This document shows positions 3,206-29,916 of a stretch of DNA of 64,000 nt, piece by piece (positions within the stretch are counted from its first letter, which is position 1; each line of letters opens with the position of its first letter). Below the pieces are notes generated by a model. The model was not told where the DNA came from. It saw only the letters and a program-made list of their open reading frames with translations, and made no database searches. The DNA comes from a virus (Duplodnaviria; Heunggongvirae; Uroviricota; Caudoviricetes): the IMG/VR virus record IMGVR_UViG_2534681834_000006; one strand, written 5' to 3'. The position numbers and the translations under genes were made by a program.

Positions 3206-4045
3206 TCAGGCGTCGCTATCCAGCAACAAATCATCTGCGCGTGTGCGATCAAACGTAGGTGTCGCTTTCACAATAGTGCCACCAGGCGTTGCGGTGATCG
3301 GGGCGCTAATCGACGTAACTCCAGTAAGCGAAGTTGTATCCGAAGTTTCAAACCAGCAGAATGCTTTTTCGGTATCAGAAATCTCGTTCAAAGTGATCAT
3401 GTCGGCCTGTTCATTTACAACAACCGACAAATAGAGCGTAAGCCCATCAAACACTATATGCAGTGGCAGTAGAGGCTTTACGAACTGATTAAACTTTCTG
3501 AGAATTTCTTCTGTAATTGCGGACTGATCTATCGTGCCAGTAATACCCATTGTCCTAGCCAGGTCGTTTATGGGAATACTGATCATCCCTCTGGAAGTCA
3601 GAAACATCTCGCCGAATGTGCCGCCGGTAGTCTCCAGTGTGCTTTCTGGTATTAGAACTGTGCCATAGGGATGACGCTCAAGGTCCACCGGTGCATATAT
3701 CGGATCCCATAAAACAGAAATACCGTTAAATTCGCGGTAAATTGTCTGGTTTATAGGGCGTTCAGTTCCCTTAAAGTGGATCTCGTCAAGCCGCTGTTGT
3801 AACAGCATTGGTACGGAAGACGAATTCGACGTTCTGATAGTAAAGAACTGGCCAAGTTCATTTGTCCTGGTCTCCAGATCTTCCTTGCTCATGGAGAAAA
3901 TAGACTTCCGGTTGGTAATTCGCTCCAACCATGGGTCAACAAAAGTGTCCATCATTGACTGAACCAAATCAGCCAATGATTTATAGAGCAATGACTTTTG
4001 CTTAGCTGATGTAAGCCGGTTATTAAACCAGGAACGTTGCATCAC
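3206..4045 (-). CDS. phage tail/baseplate-module protein (function unknown)
   Basis: 279-aa ORF in a tightly packed same-strand operon; start overlaps the upstream stop (ATGA). Confidence 0.45.
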   Translation of the reverse strand: MMQRSWFNNRLTSAKQKSLLYKSLADLVQSMMDTFVDPWLERITNRKSIFSMSKEDLETRTNELGQFFTIRTSNSSSVPMLLQQRLDEIHFKGTERPINQTIYREFNGISVLWDPIYAPVDLERHPYGTVLIPESTLETTGGTFGEMFLTSRGMISIPINDLARTMGITGTIDQSAITEEILRKFNQFVKPLLPLHIVFDGLTLYLSVVVNEQADMITLNEISDTEKAFCWFETSDTTSLTGVTSISAPITATPGGTIVKATPTFDRTRADDLLLDSDA

Positions 4046-5475
4046 TCCTCCTCATACGAAATATTAAAGGTGGAGTTTTCTGTATCCAGATAAACGAAAT
4101 CGAAAAATCCGTTGGACTCATTCCACTCGACAAATTCCAGATAAAAATCGCGGAAATAGCCAAGCGTTTCGATATACGCCCAAACGTCTTTTTTCTTAAT
4201 CAGGATGTACTTACCAACGCGGTTTGGGTCGAAGAAAGCTGAGTCACGCCCGAATTTTGTTTCCAGCGCCGACGTCAGTTCATCGGTCACGTTTTCAATG
4301 GTCAGGCTTGCCGATATCCGCCCGGTGATTGTTATCTTAAATGGTAGTTTTCTGACCTCTTTATAAGAGAATTTCTTGTTCAGCTCATTCGGCACCTTCT
4401 TAAAGGCAGCCAGGATCATTTCTTCAAGTTCTGACTGACTTTTATTTGGATGCCACCCTGAAATAAATATCTTATTGATATTCTGAACATTATAAGCACC
4501 ATCTAATTTCTCTTGCTGGCCCTCACCCCATGCCTTTACCCAGGACAGGCCTGGGATGTTACGCACCAGAAAATACGTATAATCCCCGCCCCATACGACC
4601 TGATCATCATAGGCAAGGTAATATTGTGCACGGTTACGTGTGATCTCCGTTGTTTCAGCATCGGTACCTGCGGTTATAGGTGTCGTTGTCTTAACTGAAA
4701 TCAAATTAGCTAAATTAGCCGCAGAATCGACAGGCGTCAGGTTTTGGCCAGCAACCAGGGTTATATCGCCGTTGGTGCACCATACCTTAAGCGTAATTGT
4801 CGAGCCTTCTGGCGGTATTTGCCCAATTAGCCCATCGCCGAATCGAACCCCCAACTGCTCGGATGGTTTATAAAACTCAACGTAGACCTGGCTTTTACTA
4901 CCGGCTAACCGGAACATAGTGCTGGAAGACCACTGCGTGGTCTTACCATCGGTCGTCACGAATACTTCCAGCTTATAGCAGACAGCAGTGAGAGCCTTTG
5001 ATAACACGACTTCCAGAAATTCTTTGGCTGCCGTAACGGTATATGTCACCTCCTGGATTTCCAACTGTGCCACTTCTACCGTACCGGTGCCGTCAACCAA
5101 CCTGCATACATCCATAGTCATGTAAGGGTACTGGTCGTCAGATATTAAAGGCATGTTTTTGGGGATTACCGCTGGGGCGTCTTCACTTGTGGCAGTGATC
5201 TCAATCATCCCCGATGACGGTGTTGGCTTGGTACCAACGTAACTATTCGTTTCTGCCGCTGCCAGGATAGAGGAACGCCGCGTCGCGGTCGATATAAAGC
5301 CTTCAGCCAGCGCCGCATCGGCATACTGAAAGCACCTGTAGACAATCTGGGTAATAAACAATGTCAGCATCGAGACAAATTGAGAGCCGACAAACTTCGA
5401 CCAGAATGAATCTTTCTCGACAAGCTCTTCAAACTCTGCACGAATACTGTCTTTAGTCGGTGTTGTTTTACTCAT
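4042..5475 (-). CDS. phage tail/baseplate-module protein (function unknown)
   Basis: 477-aa ORF, translationally coupled to its neighbours between sit and the tail fibre gene. Confidence 0.45.
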   Translation of the reverse strand: MSKTTPTKDSIRAEFEELVEKDSFWSKFVGSQFVSMLTLFITQIVYRCFQYADAALAEGFISTATRRSSILAAAETNSYVGTKPTPSSGMIEITATSEDAPAVIPKNMPLISDDQYPYMTMDVCRLVDGTGTVEVAQLEIQEVTYTVTAAKEFLEVVLSKALTAVCYKLEVFVTTDGKTTQWSSSTMFRLAGSKSQVYVEFYKPSEQLGVRFGDGLIGQIPPEGSTITLKVWCTNGDITLVAGQNLTPVDSAANLANLISVKTTTPITAGTDAETTEITRNRAQYYLAYDDQVVWGGDYTYFLVRNIPGLSWVKAWGEGQQEKLDGAYNVQNINKIFISGWHPNKSQSELEEMILAAFKKVPNELNKKFSYKEVRKLPFKITITGRISASLTIENVTDELTSALETKFGRDSAFFDPNRVGKYILIKKKDVWAYIETLGYFRDFYLEFVEWNESNGFFDFVYLDTENSTFNISYEEE

Positions 5476-22249: not shown

Positions 22250-23977
22250 TTACTCAGAGTCACCGGCATCAATCGTGTCGCCGCTAATGAAGTTAAGCCC
22301 GCCTTTTTTGGCCATTGTCAGCGTTACACGAGTGAAGTAATCAGCGCCGTTGCGTGGGTGCATATCGTTGATAGCCGAACCCCACAGCGTGGTACGGTTG
22401 ACCAGCGCCGGAGTGGTCGGATGCTGGAACGGGATGGCCGGGACAGCATCACCAGTCACGAAGCCTGCTTTACCCGGATTTTCATCACGGACGTAGCACA
22501 GCACATCCATCGAGCTGAACTGAATGTTCTCTGTCGTTAAGTTCTTACAAATACCAGCAGGTACTTCGTACACTTTCACGTTACCGAACAGGGTACCGAT
22601 GTAGTGAACATACGGAGTCTGGATATAGTCTTCGGCTGGCTGGAAGAAATCCTTCGGCAACTGTTTGAAGAAAGATGCTGCATCAGCACCAGCAAACATC
22701 CCCATCGCACCAGAAGATTTAACGCGCTCAATAATGTCGCGATATACAGTCTGGAATTTGCCACGAATGATGGTTGCCCATACATCAAAGGACTGGTTAA
22801 CCGGCAGAGCGATGTCAAAGGTGTCGGTCGCAAGAGTACGCCAGATCATGATGCGAAGACGCAGCATATCCTGTTCATGAGACAGGTATTCCTTCAGGGT
22901 GCGGAACTGTAGGGAACCCAGGTCCAGACCAAATTCACGCTGTGCTTCATACGCCGCCTGTACCGTGTGCTCAGCCGCGATAACGAACTGGCTTGGGAAC
23001 AGGGTGTATTTCTTCATTTCGTGGTTGATCAGCGGGATCAGCTCAGGAGCGGCTTCAATATTGATTTCCGTCTCAATTGCGATCTCAGTGCCTTTATCCG
23101 GCGCTTTGGAGAACGACAGGGCAATCTGACCAATGTTGTAGTTCAGAGAGCAGGTAACAGTGATTTGCTCACCAGCAGCATTAGTAAACGAGTGAAGTAG
23201 GCTGCCGGAACCGTTATCAACAACAGACTTAATACGGTTAACGTAGATGTTAGTACGACCTTTTCGGATTGGTACATTCTGGCCTTCGAAGTCTTCCATC
23301 TTGAAGGTTGCGGTTTTGCTGGTGCCATCGGAGCTTGCCACCAGCACATAGCGGCGACGTAACTGGCTGTACACACCGACGGATTGCATGTCCAGAACAT
23401 CACCAGCAGCATAAGAACCAAAAGAGGAACCTGCCACGTTAAAGACTTCATAGATGTCGGACTGGTCACGCGTAACCGGAATGAAGGTACACGCATCAGC
23501 GGTAGCTGCCCCCAACTGAACAGGCAGGATCATCGCGAGGAATAAAGGCAGACGCATAACACCGTCAGAAACGCTCATCATCTCTGCTGCGACGGATTCC
23601 AGCATCGCTTTATTAGTGGCATCCATGCTATTGCGGGTGGACTCAATCAGGCAGTTTTCCAGCGTCTGGTGGCAGGAGGCCAGAATTTCCGGACGCGGCA
23701 TAGATTTATGTGCTGCGGCGTAGTCAGCCAGTGCACTTGCCCACGCTGTAGCGATTTGAGCGGTGGCATTATCAGAGATACCCGCAAAAACCGGGTCTTT
23801 ACGTGCAGCTTCAAGGATAGATGCGGCACGCGCGGCATCATCTTTAATGAATTGGTTATCAGTACCGAACTGCGCAGTGCTTGCCCAGCCAAGCACAGCT
23901 TTAGAGCGTTTTGCGATATCTGCAATACGATTCTGGTATTCGCGTAAGTTACTCAATTTACTCTTCCTTAAACACAA
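22250..23977 (-). CDS. large virion structural protein (candidate major head protein); start codon uncertain
   Basis: 575-aa ORF adjacent to parS as for the P1 head gene; track start is a TTG. Confidence 0.4.
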   Translation of the reverse strand: MCLRKSKLSNLREYQNRIADIAKRSKAVLGWASTAQFGTDNQFIKDDAARAASILEAARKDPVFAGISDNATAQIATAWASALADYAAAHKSMPRPEILASCHQTLENCLIESTRNSMDATNKAMLESVAAEMMSVSDGVMRLPLFLAMILPVQLGAATADACTFIPVTRDQSDIYEVFNVAGSSFGSYAAGDVLDMQSVGVYSQLRRRYVLVASSDGTSKTATFKMEDFEGQNVPIRKGRTNIYVNRIKSVVDNGSGSLLHSFTNAAGEQITVTCSLNYNIGQIALSFSKAPDKGTEIAIETEINIEAAPELIPLINHEMKKYTLFPSQFVIAAEHTVQAAYEAQREFGLDLGSLQFRTLKEYLSHEQDMLRLRIMIWRTLATDTFDIALPVNQSFDVWATIIRGKFQTVYRDIIERVKSSGAMGMFAGADAASFFKQLPKDFFQPAEDYIQTPYVHYIGTLFGNVKVYEVPAGICKNLTTENIQFSSMDVLCYVRDENPGKAGFVTGDAVPAIPFQHPTTPALVNRTTLWGSAINDMHPRNGADYFTRVTLTMAKKGGLNFISGDTIDAGDSE

Positions 23978-24086
23978 GGCACTTGTGTGAATCCCTTTTC
24001 GGAAGAGATTTTATTGAAAGTCACTTGTTGACTTTCTCGTGACAAGCAATTTTTTTATTTTTTCGGGAGTAGGGGAGGAAGGTAAA

Positions 24087-24170
24087 ATCCAAGGTGAAGT
24101 CGTGGCGATTTCACCTTGAAATTTTAGAGGGATTTACTTTAAAAACAGTAGTTTAATAGTGAAATTTGAA
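24087..24170. promoter_or_regulatory. parS-like partition site (ParB heptamer and hexamer boxes)
   Basis: Directly downstream of parB: gtgaagtcgtggcgatttcacc...agtgaaatttgaatggcga with ATTTCAC and TCGCCA motifs around an AT-rich core. Confidence 0.6.
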
Positions 24171-24180
24171 TGGCGAAAGT

Positions 24181-25182
24181 TTAAGGCTTCGGCTTTTTAT
24201 CGAGGCTCTTTCTAAGGATATGCCCAATCATCCTGTCGAGTTCTTCCTGTAGCTCTTTTGAAAGTCGATTAAACTCATAAGAAAATGCACGGCCTTTCAC
24301 GCGCTTCCTTGCAAAGCGATCCTTGTCCTCAAATTTCCATAATTCAGTAACTACGGACTTATCTTTAGAACCTTTATCCGTGAGTAGTGAGGCTTCCTTT
24401 GTTATCAAGCGCAGGATTTTATTTTTAACTTCATCTTCGGCCATTTCTTCAATGGATAAGATGTCGTTTATTTCCGGGGATATATTTTGAATAAGCTGAT
24501 CAAACTCTAAATTCTTGTTCCCCATTTCGTCGCCAACAGCACAAAGCGTTTTGTAGTCCGAAAAGGTTAATTCCGACTGCACAGGGAAAAGGGCGACTAA
24601 TTCTTCCGGAGCACTCGCTGCCTGGAGAGCACGCGTGACCTTCGCCTGAGACAGCCCTTCTTTGGCTGCAATATCCTTCTGACTCATCCCATCATTTTTC
24701 ATTCGCATCAAACGCAGACCTATTTCTCGAATGCTGTGCTGCAATGCTGTCTGAACGTCTTTCGCTAAATTTAGCGCTTCCTGAACGCTGATCTCCTGGT
24801 CCGTGACTAAAACCCGCAACCCTACGTTCTCTAAGATGGCAGAAGCTCGACGCCGGGAACCATCCAAAATTTCAATTTTCCCTGTTGCCCGTCTAACACC
24901 TATTGCAGGGTAAAATTGCTGATGCTTAATAGTGCTTCGGATACTTTTTAATGATTTTGGCGTAAGAGATGCCTGGTCACGCCCGTTGTTATGCTGATCA
25001 ACAAAGGTATCGCTTTCTACCTGGTTCGGAGGTATTACCTCTTCAATAAATGTGGCCTGGCGACCAGTTGATAACTTGAATACCTGCTCGACTCGATCGC
25101 CAGAGGCTGAAGAACTATCAAATCCGCTTAATATTGAAGGATTAAGGGTTCGCCCAATTGTTGGTCTGTTTTTCTTTGACAT
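24181..25182 (-). CDS. parB: partition protein ParB (P1 type)
   Basis: 333 aa MSKKNRPTIGRTLNPSILSGFDSS... matching P1 ParB as recalled. Confidence 0.9.
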   Translation of the reverse strand: MSKKNRPTIGRTLNPSILSGFDSSSASGDRVEQVFKLSTGRQATFIEEVIPPNQVESDTFVDQHNNGRDQASLTPKSLKSIRSTIKHQQFYPAIGVRRATGKIEILDGSRRRASAILENVGLRVLVTDQEISVQEALNLAKDVQTALQHSIREIGLRLMRMKNDGMSQKDIAAKEGLSQAKVTRALQAASAPEELVALFPVQSELTFSDYKTLCAVGDEMGNKNLEFDQLIQNISPEINDILSIEEMAEDEVKNKILRLITKEASLLTDKGSKDKSVVTELWKFEDKDRFARKRVKGRAFSYEFNRLSKELQEELDRMIGHILRKSLDKKPKP

Positions 25183-25198
25183 GGGGGTTTCTTACTCC

Positions 25199-26395
25199 TC
25201 AGTTAGATCTGATAAATTCAATACGGTCAAAAACTGCTTTAGCAAAATCTTCCGCGGCAATTCGCGCGTTCTTCAATGCATCAGCACTACCAACATACGT
25301 TGCCGGGTTAGCTGAAATAACAGTGTCAAAAGACTCGCCGCAACGTTCAAAACCGTCAAGGCGAGGGAGGACGACATCGAGCATATCCCCACCGAACACT
25401 TCTTTAGCCAGGCTATGGCAATACTTATGATCTGCCTTGTTACTCAACTTGGACATAAAACCAATGTTAGTCGCAAGCTGGCACTCGCAGCCTTCATCCG
25501 AAATGAGTTTCACCAACTCAGGAAGGCGGGCAACGTATTTAAGCGATGAGTGGAAATCGACAGTTGCTGGCGGCAGAGGTGTAAACAGTATATTGGCCGA
25601 GGCCAAAGCATTTTTCAGGAAGGCGTCAAGGTGAGGACCACTATCAACGAGGATAAAATCATAATCGCTCTTCAGCTTATCAATCACATTTTCTTTCAGG
25701 ACAGCATGGATGTTCTGACCCGGTAGATGCTCATTGCACAGCTCTCTCCAATCGGATGCAATAAAGGCATCGTCAATCGACGCAGGCATAACGTCAACCC
25801 CAGGTACAACAGAAGGAACAATAAACTCCTCTAACAGCTCTTCACGGCTTACATTCTGCAACATAGCCTGTGCAGATGTTGCGTTTACGATACCAATAGA
25901 GTGTTTATGGCTTAAAAACATCGTTGCTGAAGATTGCGGATCAAGGTCAATAACCAGAATCCTTAAATCTTCCATCAGAAGATGAGGGTGAGCACGCATT
26001 GCATGCGCCAGAGAAACCGTCGATACAGTTTTTGACACACCGCCTTTAAGATTGGAGATGAAAATCACATACGCTTCGCTGTAGCGATCCCGGTATTTTG
26101 GCACTCCGCGATGTTCATATATGTCAATGATGTTCTGAATTGACATCGCATATTTCATTGAAGAGCCAGCAGGGCGCTTATCGAAAACATAACCCTTTTC
26201 TTCCATTTCACTTACAGCATAGTCAACGTTCGCTCGAGTCAGTAGAGGCAATTTTGCCAGTGCCGCTTTCGCATAGACCTGGTAAAACTCGTTCGCGTGT
26301 AGCTCATCCTTTTGCAACTGTACTTGTTCAGTCAGAACATTGAGCATTCTATTTGCTCTTTGAGCAACCTTGTGAAGCTGGCTGGAATCACTCAT
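25199..26395 (-). CDS. parA: partition ATPase ParA (type Ia, N-terminal regulatory domain)
   Basis: 398 aa; deviant Walker A IFISNLKGGVSKTVSTVSLA; upstream of parB. Confidence 0.9.
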   Translation of the reverse strand: MSDSSQLHKVAQRANRMLNVLTEQVQLQKDELHANEFYQVYAKAALAKLPLLTRANVDYAVSEMEEKGYVFDKRPAGSSMKYAMSIQNIIDIYEHRGVPKYRDRYSEAYVIFISNLKGGVSKTVSTVSLAHAMRAHPHLLMEDLRILVIDLDPQSSATMFLSHKHSIGIVNATSAQAMLQNVSREELLEEFIVPSVVPGVDVMPASIDDAFIASDWRELCNEHLPGQNIHAVLKENVIDKLKSDYDFILVDSGPHLDAFLKNALASANILFTPLPPATVDFHSSLKYVARLPELVKLISDEGCECQLATNIGFMSKLSNKADHKYCHSLAKEVFGGDMLDVVLPRLDGFERCGESFDTVISANPATYVGSADALKNARIAAEDFAKAVFDRIEFIRSN

Positions 26396-26563
26396 CGAAA
26401 GTCATCCTTTATGCTGTATTTTTGAATTTAATTAAAAAAGCTGCATAAAATAATAATGTATGCGTAGATGCTTGTACATAGCATTCTCTGCGTGTTTGGT
26501 TCATTTTGCACGATTGAGAGTTACAAGGAGGGCACAAAAAAGCCCCGTTCAGGGGCATCAGTG

Positions 26564-26824
26564 TTATTTGCTAAGAGCAGCGAATAATCGTTCGAAATCG
26601 ATAGTATCTATAGCACGCGTAAGCGCCGGAAGTTCAGCCTCAAAGTACCCATGTCGATCGTAAAAGATGGGACCGAAGAGCGAGGCATGTTGGATTCTAC
26701 TTCGCCCCAGCCCGGACACACAGTTAAGCCCATTACCGGCTAAAAGGCTAAAAAACTTCTCTGGATTATCGTGGTAAAGCTGGGAATCAATGGTGGCGGT
26801 TAACTCTTCCATAGGGAAGCACAC
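26564..26824 (-). CDS. hypothetical small protein (doubtful; lies in the parA promoter region)
   Basis: 86-aa ORF with GTG start and no convincing RBS. Confidence 0.2.
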   Translation of the reverse strand: MCFPMEELTATIDSQLYHDNPEKFFSLLAGNGLNCVSGLGRSRIQHASLFGPIFYDRHGYFEAELPALTRAIDTIDFERLFAALSK

Positions 26825-26845
26825 CCGCCCTGTATCCCAGGGATA

Positions 26846-27373
26846 TTAAGTCCGAAGCATAAACATTGCTTTCAGCAATTCACACTGAGCGCGGATCGCG
26901 TCCGGTTCATAGCCAGATATGGAGACATAAGCCACGTCCCTCATTCCTGCGTCATCTTTGAAAGTCACGATAGAAGTAACATCCAGCTCTTTTTCGAAAG
27001 AGCAAGCAGCATCTACTGGACGCTGAAGTAAATCATTCGACTTAATGCGCTCGAGAATCCCTCCCCACATATCATTTAGATATTCGATATGAGCCAAAAC
27101 CTTATCAAGACACTCTCGTGTAAACCATTCAGTATGCCCGCCACCTGCGCTTTTCTCCCACGGCGCATTCCAGGGGAAAAAGGTTGCGTGTAAAGCCCGC
27201 TCAAGATTAACCATTGCCAAACGCGTACCACGATAGACCCGTGAAAGCGCAAAATCGGGACTCACTTGTAGCCCTTTAAACCGTGCCAATGGACCACATG
27301 AAATGCCGATTTTAAAAGTATCTCCGTTCTCCGGCACCAGAACGTAGAGGTAGTGTTGTTTCTCTTCTTGCAT
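26846..27373 (-). CDS. T5orf172 / GIY-YIG-like domain protein
   Basis: N-terminal YLYVLVPENGDTFKIGIS...RF and later GGGHTEWF fit the T5orf172 pattern. Confidence 0.55.
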   Translation of the reverse strand: MQEEKQHYLYVLVPENGDTFKIGISCGPLARFKGLQVSPDFALSRVYRGTRLAMVNLERALHATFFPWNAPWEKSAGGGHTEWFTRECLDKVLAHIEYLNDMWGGILERIKSNDLLQRPVDAACSFEKELDVTSIVTFKDDAGMRDVAYVSISGYEPDAIRAQCELLKAMFMLRT

Positions 27374-27396
27374 ATCAATACCACTGCTTGATGAGA

Positions 27397-27665
27397 ACCG
27401 CGCAAATGTTGACTATGCGCGAAAGTTAATGTGAATAGTTGACTATGCGCGATGTGACTACAGTCAAAAGTTGACTGTAGTCGATTTAACTCCACCAAAA
27501 ATCGACTATGTAAGATATTGTCGGGAGAAACGTTGACTATACGCGATGAAATGACCCTAAAAGCCATCTCAATAGCGACTTGCAGAATATTGACGCCAGC
27601 AAAAATCCACCAGCGTCAACGAATGTCGCCTATAGTCAACTTCTCGCTATCGCATATAGTCAATA
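27397..27665. repeat. iteron cluster downstream of repA (incA-like)
   Basis: Repeated TTGACTATGCGCGA / TTGACTGTAGTCGA / TTGACTATACGCGA units, plus oppositely oriented TCGCCTATAGTCAAC and TCGCATATAGTCAAT at the repA 3' end. Confidence 0.65.
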
Positions 27666-28550
27666 TTATGGATTGCGCTTATGGATCTGGAAGCCGATTT
27701 TCCTGCCGTTTTTTATCTCTGAAAATTTAAGATATTCAATAGCTTCCAAATCTTTCATAGCTTTTCTGATAACGCTATTTTGCACGCTAACGGATGATTT
27801 GAGATTAAGCCTTGCTCTAAGGCGCTCAATGCTGACAGGTGCCGGGTTGGCGGGTAGAGCCTCAAAGAATGTATACAGCACCTTGGCCGTCTCTTTGCGC
27901 CCGAGCTTATCCAGCATCTTCAGCTTCAGGATTCGCTTATAGTCAACATAGTAAAGTTCAGATAGCTGTTTCTGCGGCTGGATCTCGATAACATCAAGCT
28001 CGGTATTCAGGCTGCTATATGCCAACAAGTTGACGTTAATGTTATTGAGATGACCTTTTGCCGCCGGGAAGCGGAATTTGACAACTGTCTGCTGAATGCG
28101 TGTCAGAGAGTCATCAATACTTTTACGGAACGCCTTTGAAAGGCGCTTACGTGGATAGCCGCATCGATCGGCAAACTCGGAGAATGGCAGGGTGATTATG
28201 CCGTCATCATCAGGTGCGTAGTCAAACAACGCGGAGGTTATGCCCACCCACACCTTAAAATCAGTATCCATATCCAGGCGTGGACCATGTATTTCAATTC
28301 CCTCATAGCCTTCCTGCTCAACAATTTTGAGGCTTGATAGTTCTTCGGTTGCGTTCGTTGTGTTTGTAGTAACTGACGATCCGCGACGTAGTGCCACATT
28401 GGTAGATTTTAAGGTTGGCACAAACACACCTAAGCGCAACAAAGCGATGGGTTGTATAGTGCTATTGTTATTGGGTTTCAGGCTGTGGATTTCTCCTGTA
28501 TTTCCTGCAACTTCTTCAACGCTAAGGAAGCCTTTATTTTCTTCCGGCAT
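27666..28550 (-). CDS. repA: iteron-binding replication initiator RepA (Rep_3 family)
   Basis: RepA/RepE-like sequence (LLRLGVFVP...GPRLDMDTDFKVW...); ATG at 28550 has a ggaga RBS; the ORF is open upstream to 28607. Confidence 0.8.
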   Translation of the reverse strand: MPEENKGFLSVEEVAGNTGEIHSLKPNNNSTIQPIALLRLGVFVPTLKSTNVALRRGSSVTTNTTNATEELSSLKIVEQEGYEGIEIHGPRLDMDTDFKVWVGITSALFDYAPDDDGIITLPFSEFADRCGYPRKRLSKAFRKSIDDSLTRIQQTVVKFRFPAAKGHLNNINVNLLAYSSLNTELDVIEIQPQKQLSELYYVDYKRILKLKMLDKLGRKETAKVLYTFFEALPANPAPVSIERLRARLNLKSSVSVQNSVIRKAMKDLEAIEYLKFSEIKNGRKIGFQIHKRNP

Positions 28551-28628
28551 CGTGGTTTCTCCATATGTGGCGCGGCCTGGCGTCATCTGGATTGCAGTTA
28601 TCAACAACTGTGAATAGTCAGGCTCTAA

Positions 28629-28731
28629 AATCGCGTACAGTCAATGTTTCTGTCGCGTATAGTCAACAATAAATCGCGTGCAGTCAACAATAAATCGTGC
28701 ACAGTCAACATAAAATCGCGTATAGTCAATG
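28629..28731. repeat. five direct iterons upstream of repA (incC/origin-like)
   Basis: aatcgcgtacagtcaa, tcgcgtatagtcaac, tcgcgtgcagtcaac, tcgtgcacagtcaac, tcgcgtatagtcaat at about 21-bp spacing. Confidence 0.7.
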
Positions 28732-28764
28732 TTGATCCCATTTCAGGCCAGAAATGGCGCGGCT

Positions 28765-28841
28765 TACAGCGATCCGGGATCTTCTTTGGATCTTCCTAGG
28801 TTCTCTTTAGGATCTGTTTATTGGATCTATGCTGTGGATAA
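28765..28841. promoter_or_regulatory. plasmid replication origin core: GATC cluster plus DnaA box
   Basis: Five GATC within 60 bp (gatccgggatc, ggatcttcc, ggatctg, ggatcta) and TGTGGATAA at 28833-28841 next to the iterons. Confidence 0.55.
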
Positions 28842-28884
28842 GTTGAATAAACCGGCCAATAAAGCCGGTTGGAAGGAAGCCGTA

Positions 28885-29277
28885 TTATTCTACGCTCTCG
28901 ATAAGAAGACCATGTTCATAACATTTAAGCTCATCGCCTTCGTACAGGAATTGGTATCCAACACCACCATCTTCATGGACATTAGGGAATAACTCATAAC
29001 TCACTGAAGAGCAAATCACACCAATGCAGCGATCAACTCCTTCTCGTTCTTCAGTGCAGAAAAAATCCTCTTCGGTAAGAACATGAGTACATTGCTCATC
29101 AGCATAGGTCGGAAATACATGCTCAATGCAATCCGGGTGTTTTAAACCAAGCTGATCGGCAAGCTCGAAAGCACGACGGTATTGTTCAGATCCTGGCTTG
29201 CCAACAGTGATTTGCTCAATTTTGTAGATTGAAGTCGCTTTGTTGATAGTTTGCTTTACTGTTACTTTATCAGACAT
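28885..29277 (-). CDS. hypothetical protein
   Basis: 130-aa ORF beside the origin; Cys/His-containing. Confidence 0.4.
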   Translation of the reverse strand: MSDKVTVKQTINKATSIYKIEQITVGKPGSEQYRRAFELADQLGLKHPDCIEHVFPTYADEQCTHVLTEEDFFCTEEREGVDRCIGVICSSVSYELFPNVHEDGGVGYQFLYEGDELKCYEHGLLIESVE

Positions 29278-29288
29278 AAAAATCCCTT

Positions 29289-29621
29289 TTAGTTACCGCT
29301 GATAGCGCGGTTGTAATCATTAACGTTGCGATTCTTCCTGTTAATCCCCATCAGCATCGTTTCTGTATCAAGGATATAGGCTGGCAGATCATCAAAATAT
29401 TCACTGCTAAACTCTGGCATCCTGCACATAAATGCACTTTTGGGGGCAGGGTGATTAACCTTTGTCGGCGTCGGCGTTAAATTCGCTGATCGACTCCCGG
29501 AGCAACCGCTGAGTGTCAACAGGAATGCGCTGGCGAACACTACCCGACGCAACCAGTTGTTTCTGAACTTCAGCTTTTCGTTCCATTTGTCTGTCTGCAT
29601 ACTTCGCTTGTTCTGATTCAT
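29289..29621 (-). CDS. outer-membrane lipoprotein, o-spanin-like (Rz1-like), overlapping the upstream gene out of frame
   Basis: Lipobox LLTLSGC then Pro-rich segment TPTPTKVNHPAPK; aggaag RBS; alternative start 29600. Confidence 0.5.
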   Translation of the reverse strand: MNQNKRSMQTDKWNEKLKFRNNWLRRVVFASAFLLTLSGCSGSRSANLTPTPTKVNHPAPKSAFMCRMPEFSSEYFDDLPAYILDTETMLMGINRKNRNVNDYNRAISGN

Positions 29622-29877
29622 TTTTCACTTCCTGGCTGTGAAAATGTTGATCCGCTTTATTCATCGTCTCAATGGTCTGGTTAAGATCAATGATTGACTT
29701 ATCGCGCTCCTTAACAGCCTGATCAAGGCTGCCAATTTTTTCCAAGGCTTGCTTTAACTGATAACGTTCCCATGCAAACCCAGCACCAACAAGTGCGCAA
29801 ATCAGGACAAGAACACCAGTAACAGCAAGTTTCTCCTTCAAAGACAAAGCTGTTTTTAACGTTGAAAAAAACGACAT
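29455..29877 (-). CDS. inner-membrane coiled-coil protein, i-spanin-like (Rz-like)
   Basis: N-terminal TM helix LAVTGVLVLICALVGAGFAW then charged helical region; partner lipoprotein gene overlaps its 3' end. Confidence 0.5.
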   Translation of the reverse strand: MSFFSTLKTALSLKEKLAVTGVLVLICALVGAGFAWERYQLKQALEKIGSLDQAVKERDKSIIDLNQTIETMNKADQHFHSQEVKNESEQAKYADRQMERKAEVQKQLVASGSVRQRIPVDTQRLLRESISEFNADADKG

Positions 29878-29916
29878 TTCTTCCTCCTGAAGAAAAATTA
29901 TCTGTGAAGTCCTTTG

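Follow-up and report, generated by a model that had tools for sequence, protein, structure and literature searches.

Analysis of a 64,000-nucleotide stretch of DNA from IMG/VR virus record IMGVR_UViG_2534681834_000006 (Caudoviricetes), the whole of which is hereafter called the window, showed that the interval between the partition gene parA and the nearest iterons of the replicon holds a single 269-codon T5orf172/GIY-YIG gene with a predicted winged-helix tail, which a premature stop codon splits into two open reading frames (ORFs). Comparison with related elements indicates that this gene is the parA-proximal end component of an alternative, p0111-type replicon cassette of P1-like phage-plasmids, and the gene is best read as encoding a two-domain site-specific nuclease. 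Tentatively, we favor the view that it is a selfish, free-standing homing-type nuclease that drives the spread of the replicon cassette to which it is linked.

One gene split by a nonsense mutation

The parA start at 26395 and the two small ORFs of 175 and 86 amino acids (aa) described in the first-pass annotation of this DNA are all present where it had placed them (Table 1), but the shorter ORF, which had been regarded as doubtful, turned out to be the C-terminal part of the same gene as the longer one. Both ORFs are in the same frame with 21 nt between them, and a single TAA breaks a frame that is otherwise continuous. Phage RCS47 carries the corresponding sequence as one 269-aa coding sequence (CDS), annotated as a “GIY-YIG nuclease family protein,” with identical end points and with AAA (Lys176) at the position of the stop. 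The gene matches phrog_2876 across its full length (E 8e-193), and the remainder past the stop is matched by a profile of the C-terminal domain of the family (E 2e-35).

Allele frequencies were obtained from PLSDB with a 41-nt probe centered on the variant base, for which megablast needs an exact 28-mer, such that only records with the same base are returned. The TAA allele was found in 3 records (NZ_MN510446.1, NZ_CP043337.1, and NZ_CP122822.1) and the AAA allele in 368, indicating that the stop codon is a real, inherited, and rare allele. The first of these records is plasmid pSvP1, whose cassette matches that of the window at 100% identity and for which Venturini et al. reported “48,004-49,273, 2 orfs inserted between repA and parA” (PMC6906374); this range corresponds exactly to window 26396-27665.

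In structure models the whole of the canonical winged-helix unit (aa 183-231) comes after the stop at codon 176. Since the K176* allele takes away this motif, the window copy is almost certainly inactive, and its product would consist of the nuclease domain but lack the part presumed to target it. No second T5orf172-like or C-domain-like ORF was found in the 64-kb window. A consensus scan of the strand of the gene from repA to the ATG gave no promoter-like or terminator-like site, which makes transcription of the nuclease gene by read-through from repA plausible and, in our estimation, probable. A terminator-like hairpin lies 8 nt past the stop of the gene and is conserved in 6/6 aligned cassettes.

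Protein domains and predicted fold

The assignment of the 175-aa ORF to the T5orf172 family, previously proposed from the look of its N-terminus, was upheld by the Pfam hidden Markov model (HMM) of this family (PF10544), which the ORF matches over aa 8-85 with a score of 28.7 bits (cut-off 20; E 2e-06). The same threshold was passed by 4/4 subfamilies, with 26.8 bits for the full-length allele of RCS47 and with 25.1, 26.7, and 28.0 bits for the relatives P0009 and P0010 and the gene of contig L003, respectively, all of which are described below. Residues Y8, Y10, K21, G23, R31, H62, W68, and N69 and the motif GGxTEWF, which includes E82, are invariant in the four subfamilies. Judged from their position in the motifs, the invariant Y, R, and E residues would form the GIY-YIG catalytic core, and the T5orf172 domain is expected to have nuclease activity.

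We read the protein as a catalytic domain of the T5orf172/GIY-YIG kind (aa 1-102), joined by a flexible linker to a predicted C-terminal winged-helix domain (aa ~128-269) that probably binds DNA. Structure comparison bore out the GIY-YIG fold of the N-terminal domain, which matched SLX1-type GIY-YIG nucleases with scores of 7.2-7.5 (At-HIGLE with a root-mean-square deviation of 2.1 A over 88 aa) and the GIY-YIG domain of UvrC with a score of 4.4, and a Foldseek search against viral structure models paired this domain with phage T5orf172 proteins, with “homing endonuclease” entries, and with ORF88 of ICP1. The C-terminal domain matched the Rep WH1 domain of MSBI1.176 (5.8, with 109 aa aligned), TcpK (5.8), the WH1 domain of pPS10 RepA (5.2), RctB (4.7-5.3), and RepE (4.8-5.1), and its matches also include the winged-helix domains of ORC, Cdc6, Cdt1, and MCM8.

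The isolated C-terminal 167 aa matched no Pfam family at E up to 10, Rep_3 and RepA_N included, and an HMM search of the sequences in PDB with the family alignment gave nothing significant; likewise, the full-length protein matched 0 families among the PADLOC-DB 2.0 defence models at E up to 1 and had no match in an NCBIfam scan. A comparison of the C-terminal domain by hhalign with five RepA proteins (the neighboring one, that of P1, and three others) showed no similarity (probability 0.15%), and the likeness to Rep initiators is therefore modest and confined to the predicted fold. Recent capture of a RepA domain, in the manner of the ICP1 nuclease Odn discussed below, was considered and rejected on the basis of this null profile-profile comparison.

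The gene at the edge of an exchanged replicon cassette

Alignment of the window with P1 (NC_005856) by blastn gave 99.2% identity over window 22301-26497 and 94.9% over 28747-31244, with nothing alignable between these two flanks bar a weak 59-nt match inside repA. Here 2249 bp of the window stand in for 1491 bp of P1 (incA, repA, and the incC iterons), the DnaA-box/Dam part of the P1 oriR is kept, and the junction between cassette and P1 sequence falls 66 bp downstream of the stop of the nuclease gene. The cassette is ordered as origin iterons, repA, incA-like iterons, nuclease gene, and terminator. Its repA product, encoded by an 885-nt CDS in RefSeq, scores above the Pfam Rep3_C cut-off, and the incA-like array downstream of repA consists of at least 6 copies, with the parA-proximal copy (27404-27422) located 30 nt upstream of the ATG at 27373.

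The maintenance region of P1 and P7 (incC-repA-incA-parA-parB-parS) resembles that of the window in having origin iterons, repA, control iterons, and par in the same order, and parA, parB, the par promoter, and the DnaA-box/Dam part of oriR of P1 are 95-99% identical to those of the window. It differs in that the RepA of the window is only 41% identical to that of P1, in that the iterons are unrelated, and in that no gene lies between parA and incA. The spacing that had been flagged as odd is indeed so relative to these references, with the iteron nearest to parA at 1008 bp in the window compared to 273 bp in P1 and 109 bp in P7. Neither P1 nor P7 has an annotated gene at the site, tblastn of both records found no homologue, and tblastn of the P1 incA-Ppar spacer at word size 2 returned only matches with E >0.4 and no remnant of a past copy.

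At this place the gene is standard for ~400 plasmids and for SJ46, RCS47, JL22, and phi456. The block that carries it was found in 404 PLSDB plasmids, 392 with query coverage >=80%, as well as in 12 phage records that count these four phages among them, and the cassette of the window is 99.1% identical to that of JL22, whose repA' is typed p0111. The idea that the gene is an accessory insertion therefore stands in part: its behavior is that of an accessory gene, with none in P1 or P7, but it did not insert into a P1-type replicon, as the whole cassette has been swapped.

Two further observations concern the limits of the exchanged tract. The retained DnaA-box/Dam part of oriR (28747-28989) shares only 82% identity with P1, and beyond it the identity recovers to 92-99%, such that the edge of the cassette is gradual on the origin side and sharp on the parA side. 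Separately, homology between P1 (L001, 4367-4370) and P7 (NC_050152, 64038) stops precisely where incA iteron 1 has its outer edge, so that the junction of incA and par also bounds the difference in par module between P1 and P7.

Relatives in other P1-like lineages

Full-length relatives came from only three further groups when 5.8 billion proteins were searched by word index and 1.84 billion cluster representatives were scanned in full with HMMER, and the family is thus very narrow. These relatives are 44% (P0004), ~28% (P0009, under the NCBI name Salmonella enterica), and ~25% identical (P0010, from a fecal metagenome), while ~150 further matches were restricted to the T5orf172 domain. Cluster P0003 (168 aa, starting from Met102) gave the impression of a frequent allele with a disrupted N-terminus, an impression that was rejected as an artefact, since the underlying contig begins inside the gene. 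Three more distant T5orf172 relatives showed no replicon linkage, being located in a chromosomal Mrr/WYL neighborhood, on a 1.4-kb contig, and in an HNH-rich phage, respectively, and a scan of GTDB species genomes yielded only one Escherichia locus of the same family plus one unrelated Flavobacteriaceae match.

On all three of the P1-like contigs with full-length relatives, the gene sits as in the window, preceded by repA and iterons and followed by parA and parB, and the supposition that insertions are unexpected at this site is accordingly not borne out. The three contigs differ in replicon type. L003 (Logan ERR2144811) has the RepA type of the window (84% identical); L004 (Logan SRR6505940) is of the P1/IncY type, with a RepA 83% identical to that of P1 and P1-like iterons (GATGTGTGCTGGAGGGA); and L005 (Logan SRR12532267, 3965-8307) has a third type of RepA, which shares 41-48% identity with those of P1 and p0111, with its own iterons (like GCTACTGnAnGCTAC), a P1-like backbone, and the T5orf172 gene between the iterons and parA. 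The parA and parB products of L005 (401 and 321 aa) are roughly of P7 sizes.

L003 and L004 have near-identical parA and parB (ParA 99.7% and ParB 98.2% identical), likewise near-identical flanks, and different cassettes, p0111-like and IncY-like, respectively, each with its own divergent T5orf172 gene. The non-homologous block between them ends 84 bp (L003) and 63 bp (L004) past the stop of the nuclease gene, and this pair represents a second, independent replicon swap with boundaries that match those of the window versus P1. The equivalent block ends (66 bp in the first comparison, 84 and 63 bp in the second) indicate that cassettes were swapped at this point at least two times, in both cases with a nuclease gene bordering the exchanged block on the parA side. 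In a tree of the nucleases, the window groups with L003 and L004 groups with L005; these two clades do not match the RepA types, and the gene is thus tied to the locus and not strictly to one iteron specificity.

Dispensability and selective constraint

Variation was analyzed in 49 full-length copies, comprising the window, 6 GenBank/RefSeq/GTDB records, and 42 IMG/VR loci. Across this set the nuclease gene has 35 synonymous and 36 nonsynonymous variant codons, 4 nonsense alleles, and 26 distinct proteins; the corresponding values are 48, 4, 0, and 5 for repA and 51, 1, 0, and 2 for parA. The nonsynonymous/synonymous ratio is ~0.3 for the nuclease gene versus 0.01-0.03 for repA and parA, and the nuclease gene evolves under about 10-50 times less constraint than they do. 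In a six-sequence set, the ratio of nonsynonymous to synonymous polymorphism (pN/pS) was lowest in repA (0.01), intermediate in the nuclease domain (0.12), and highest in the C-terminal domain (0.41).

The nonsense alleles are independent of one another and consist of W68*, S112* (in five loci), K176* (the window), and Q228* (L032, gene at 3501-4307), whereas 41 of the 49 copies are open through all 269 codons. Larger lesions were also identified: locus L054 (3795-5557) has a 1.76-kb insertion and a 229-bp deletion within the nuclease gene, and in pLR-46_1 (L010, 3343-4055) IS1 leaves only the 3' 342 bp of the gene next to parA, with no repA of the p0111 type seen. With 36 nonsynonymous changes and 4 nonsense alleles, set against 4 and 0 for repA and 1 and 0 for parA, these results indicate that the gene is dispensable for maintenance. 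It is thus unlike a core component in two respects, namely its absence from P1 and P7 and the lack of the strong purifying selection seen for repA and parA. Over the long term, an open frame and the catalytic core have been kept in four deeply diverged lineages.

A proposed homing-type nuclease and the alternatives

The distribution and variation of the gene match those of a homing nuclease gene. Its presence is polymorphic, with ~400 plasmids and 12 phage records occupied and P1 and P7 empty; it lies at the edge of an exchanged tract; and degenerate alleles (nonsense at codons 68, 112, 176, and 228, the indel, and the IS1 truncation) exist beside intact ones. We infer homing from these features, and the cleavage target named below is a proposal. 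In the proposed sequence of events, two related P1-like elements would meet in one cell, where the nuclease encoded by one would cleave the maintenance-region allele of the other, be it a different cassette or an empty site such as that of P1 and P7. Recombinational repair would then use the conserved flanks, with Ppar/parA on one side and the DnaA-box/Dam part of oriR and upfA on the other, and would copy the nuclease gene along with the linked replicon. Such a process would account for the exchange of a block whose parA-side edge lies 60-85 bp beyond the gene. A more speculative reading, which may be called “replicon drive,” would have the nuclease of each cassette recognize the iterons (or RepA) of rival cassettes by means of its Rep-WH1-like domain. 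We consider this reading unlikely, but if true, it would mean that incompatibility types compete by targeted cleavage and gene conversion, and it would explain why P1-like elements are divided into IncY and p0111 types and why block swaps recur at identical boundaries.

The T5orf172 homing genes of ICP1, T5-like, and other phages, in which a nuclease is combined with a modular DNA-binding domain (Barth, Dunham and Seed, 2023; PMC10448857), share with the gene of the window their catalytic family and architecture, their location at the edges of exchanged blocks beside essential genes, and the occurrence of frameshift or nonsense alleles in natural isolates. They differ in that 87% of them have CapR, DUF723, or DUF4397 zinc-finger modules (PMC10448857), none of which is present in the protein of the window. 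They also occupy many loci in lytic phages, whereas the family of the window is confined to one P1-like phage-plasmid locus.

I-TevI and the Seg proteins of T4 are similar in having a GIY-YIG domain tethered by a linker to a separate DNA-binding domain, and in being free-standing between essential genes with co-conversion of flanking markers. To our knowledge, they have no detectable sequence relation to the protein of the window beyond the GIY-YIG core, and the DNA-binding modules of I-TevI (zinc finger, minor-groove helix, and helix-turn-helix) are of other kinds.

A further parallel is Odn of ICP1, identified as Gp88 in the ICP1 papers, in which a T5orf172 nuclease is fused to a RepA-like DNA-binding domain; it cuts the origin of a satellite in an iteron-dependent manner and has been proposed to promote exchanges of replication modules (PMC8263062). 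Like Odn, the protein encoded here has a T5orf172/GIY-YIG nuclease domain, joined to a putative DNA-binding domain that may be of the replication-initiator kind, and its gene is an accessory one linked to replication-module swaps. As a rival explanation, the gene could be a weapon of the Odn type, in which a Rep-mimicking winged helix would aim the nuclease at the iterons or origin of competitors (other P1-like cassettes, plasmids, or satellites) such that the rival is destroyed and not converted. Although this explanation overlaps mechanistically with homing, we regard it as the less likely of the two by a good way, because the C-terminal domain lacks sequence homology to an initiator origin-binding domain, is unlike the neighboring and four other RepA proteins in sequence, and has no Pfam Rep_3/RepA_N or PADLOC match, and because generic winged-helix proteins (TcpK, eIF3a, and ORC) score about equal to Rep WH1.

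The ~1:1 proportion of synonymous to nonsynonymous variant codons, the recurrent stops, and the broken copy in the window would also fit a decaying, functionless relic that is carried inside the replicon cassette throughout the E. coli p0111 lineage. That 41/49 copies remain open over 269 codons, that the ratio of ~0.3 (~0.12 in the nuclease domain in the six-sequence set) is below neutrality, and that homologues with an open frame and an intact catalytic core survive in three lineages at a much greater distance makes such a relic improbable.

Still less probable is a role as an accessory of replication or partition, a role that the first-pass annotation had entertained; the protein might, for example, modulate RepA via a WH1-like interaction, nick iterons, or regulate Ppar just downstream. 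In four lineages the gene does occupy the interval from the iterons to Ppar and reads in the direction of repA and parAB, no terminator-like site separates it from repA, and the WH1 fold is that of the dimerization and iteron-binding domain of Rep proteins. However, replication and partition of P1 and P7 proceed without it, and this fact, together with the recurrent knock-outs, at least four of which arose independently in elements that are otherwise intact, weakens the regulator idea most directly; the four nonsense alleles, the indel, and the IS1 truncation were all found in elements that keep repA and parA intact, constraint is far below that of these two genes, and a pure regulator would not need conserved catalytic residues. 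Finally, domestication as a non-cutting DNA-binding protein that represses some phage or plasmid promoter, as known for the T5orf172-derived repressor CapR of PLE (PMC10448857) and in line with the initial description of the T5orf172 domain as DNA-binding, is very unlikely given that the core residues Y8, Y10, R31, and E82 are invariant across relatives 25-44% identical, that no CapR-type zinc finger is present, and that the gene is dispensable.

Significance for P1-like phage-plasmids

P1-like phage-plasmids are frequent carriers of resistance genes in E. coli and Salmonella. Their backbones are otherwise nearly identical, but the replicon is of either the IncY or the p0111 type. A nuclease at the cassette edge, with a position kept across three iteron specificities, offers a testable mechanism for replicon replacement and for competition during co-infection, and a homing function would extend the picture of T5orf172 homing nucleases and Odn from lytic phages to plasmid replicons. 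The gene has already been annotated in RefSeq as a “GIY-YIG nuclease family protein,” and two papers mention ORFs of unknown function in passing. Both the pair of inserted ORFs in pSvP1 and the JL22 “unknown gene gp57” correspond to this one gene, of which the window has a broken copy. In the literature that was searched, we found no discussion of its function in phage-plasmids. What appears to be new is the recognition that the two ORFs are one gene with a nonsense mutation and that this gene is an edge component of the replicon cassette, along with its conserved position across three iteron types, the combination of GIY-YIG and winged-helix domains, and the population evidence of dispensability. 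Interest in this window in particular is lower, as its copy is broken.

Features of the maintenance region

The features of the region are listed in Table 1.

Table 1. Coordinates of features in the parA-repA region of the window.
Feature	Position	Strand	Remarks
parB	24181-25182	minus	
parA	25199-26395	minus	99.7% identical to P1 ParA
par promoter/operator region	26396-26497	minus	common to window and P1
p0111-type replicon cassette	26498-28746	minus	without homology to P1
Intrinsic-terminator-like hairpin	26542-26556	minus	GCCCC-TGAAC-GGGGC then TTTTTT
Whole nuclease gene frame	26564-27373	minus	269 codons + stop; pseudogene/truncated allele in window
86-aa ORF	26564-26824	minus	within untranslated gene remainder
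Untranslated gene remainder, codons 177-269	26564-26845	minus	in frame with 175-aa ORF
Predicted winged-helix motif, aa 183-231	26681-26827	minus	strand, three helices, beta wing
175-aa ORF	26846-27373	minus	still open: nuclease domain, linker, start of C-terminal domain
Premature stop TAA, codon 176	26846-26848	minus	AAA (Lys) in common allele
T5orf172 (GIY-YIG-like) domain, aa 8-85	27119-27352	minus	motifs YLY, FKIG, R31, GGGHTEWF (E82)
incA-like iteron array	27404-27664	both orientations	core TCGCGnATAGTCAAC; families D3-D5, I6, I7
repA (Rep3-type)	27666-28550	minus	294 aa from ATG 28550
Origin-side iterons	28626-28750		five copies, ~21-bp spacing; D1, D2; core TCGCGnATAGTCAAC

Two observations relate to repA itself. 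A mechanical ORF extends from TTG 28607 (313 aa), while conservation favors the RefSeq start at ATG 28550 (294 aa), and an iteron-like copy (ATTCGCTTATAGTCAAC, 82% identical to the reference iteron) is present within the repA coding sequence at 27931-27947. In the left flank, identity to P1 falls to 96% over the parS/3'-parB segment (24051-24299), compared to 98-100% in the rest of the flank, and this dip could bear on partition incompatibility (incB). Lastly, four p0111-type P1-like plasmids (L006-L009) are given the replicon type “IncHI1B” by MOB-suite, as quoted by PLSDB, apparently through mis-typing of their RepA family.
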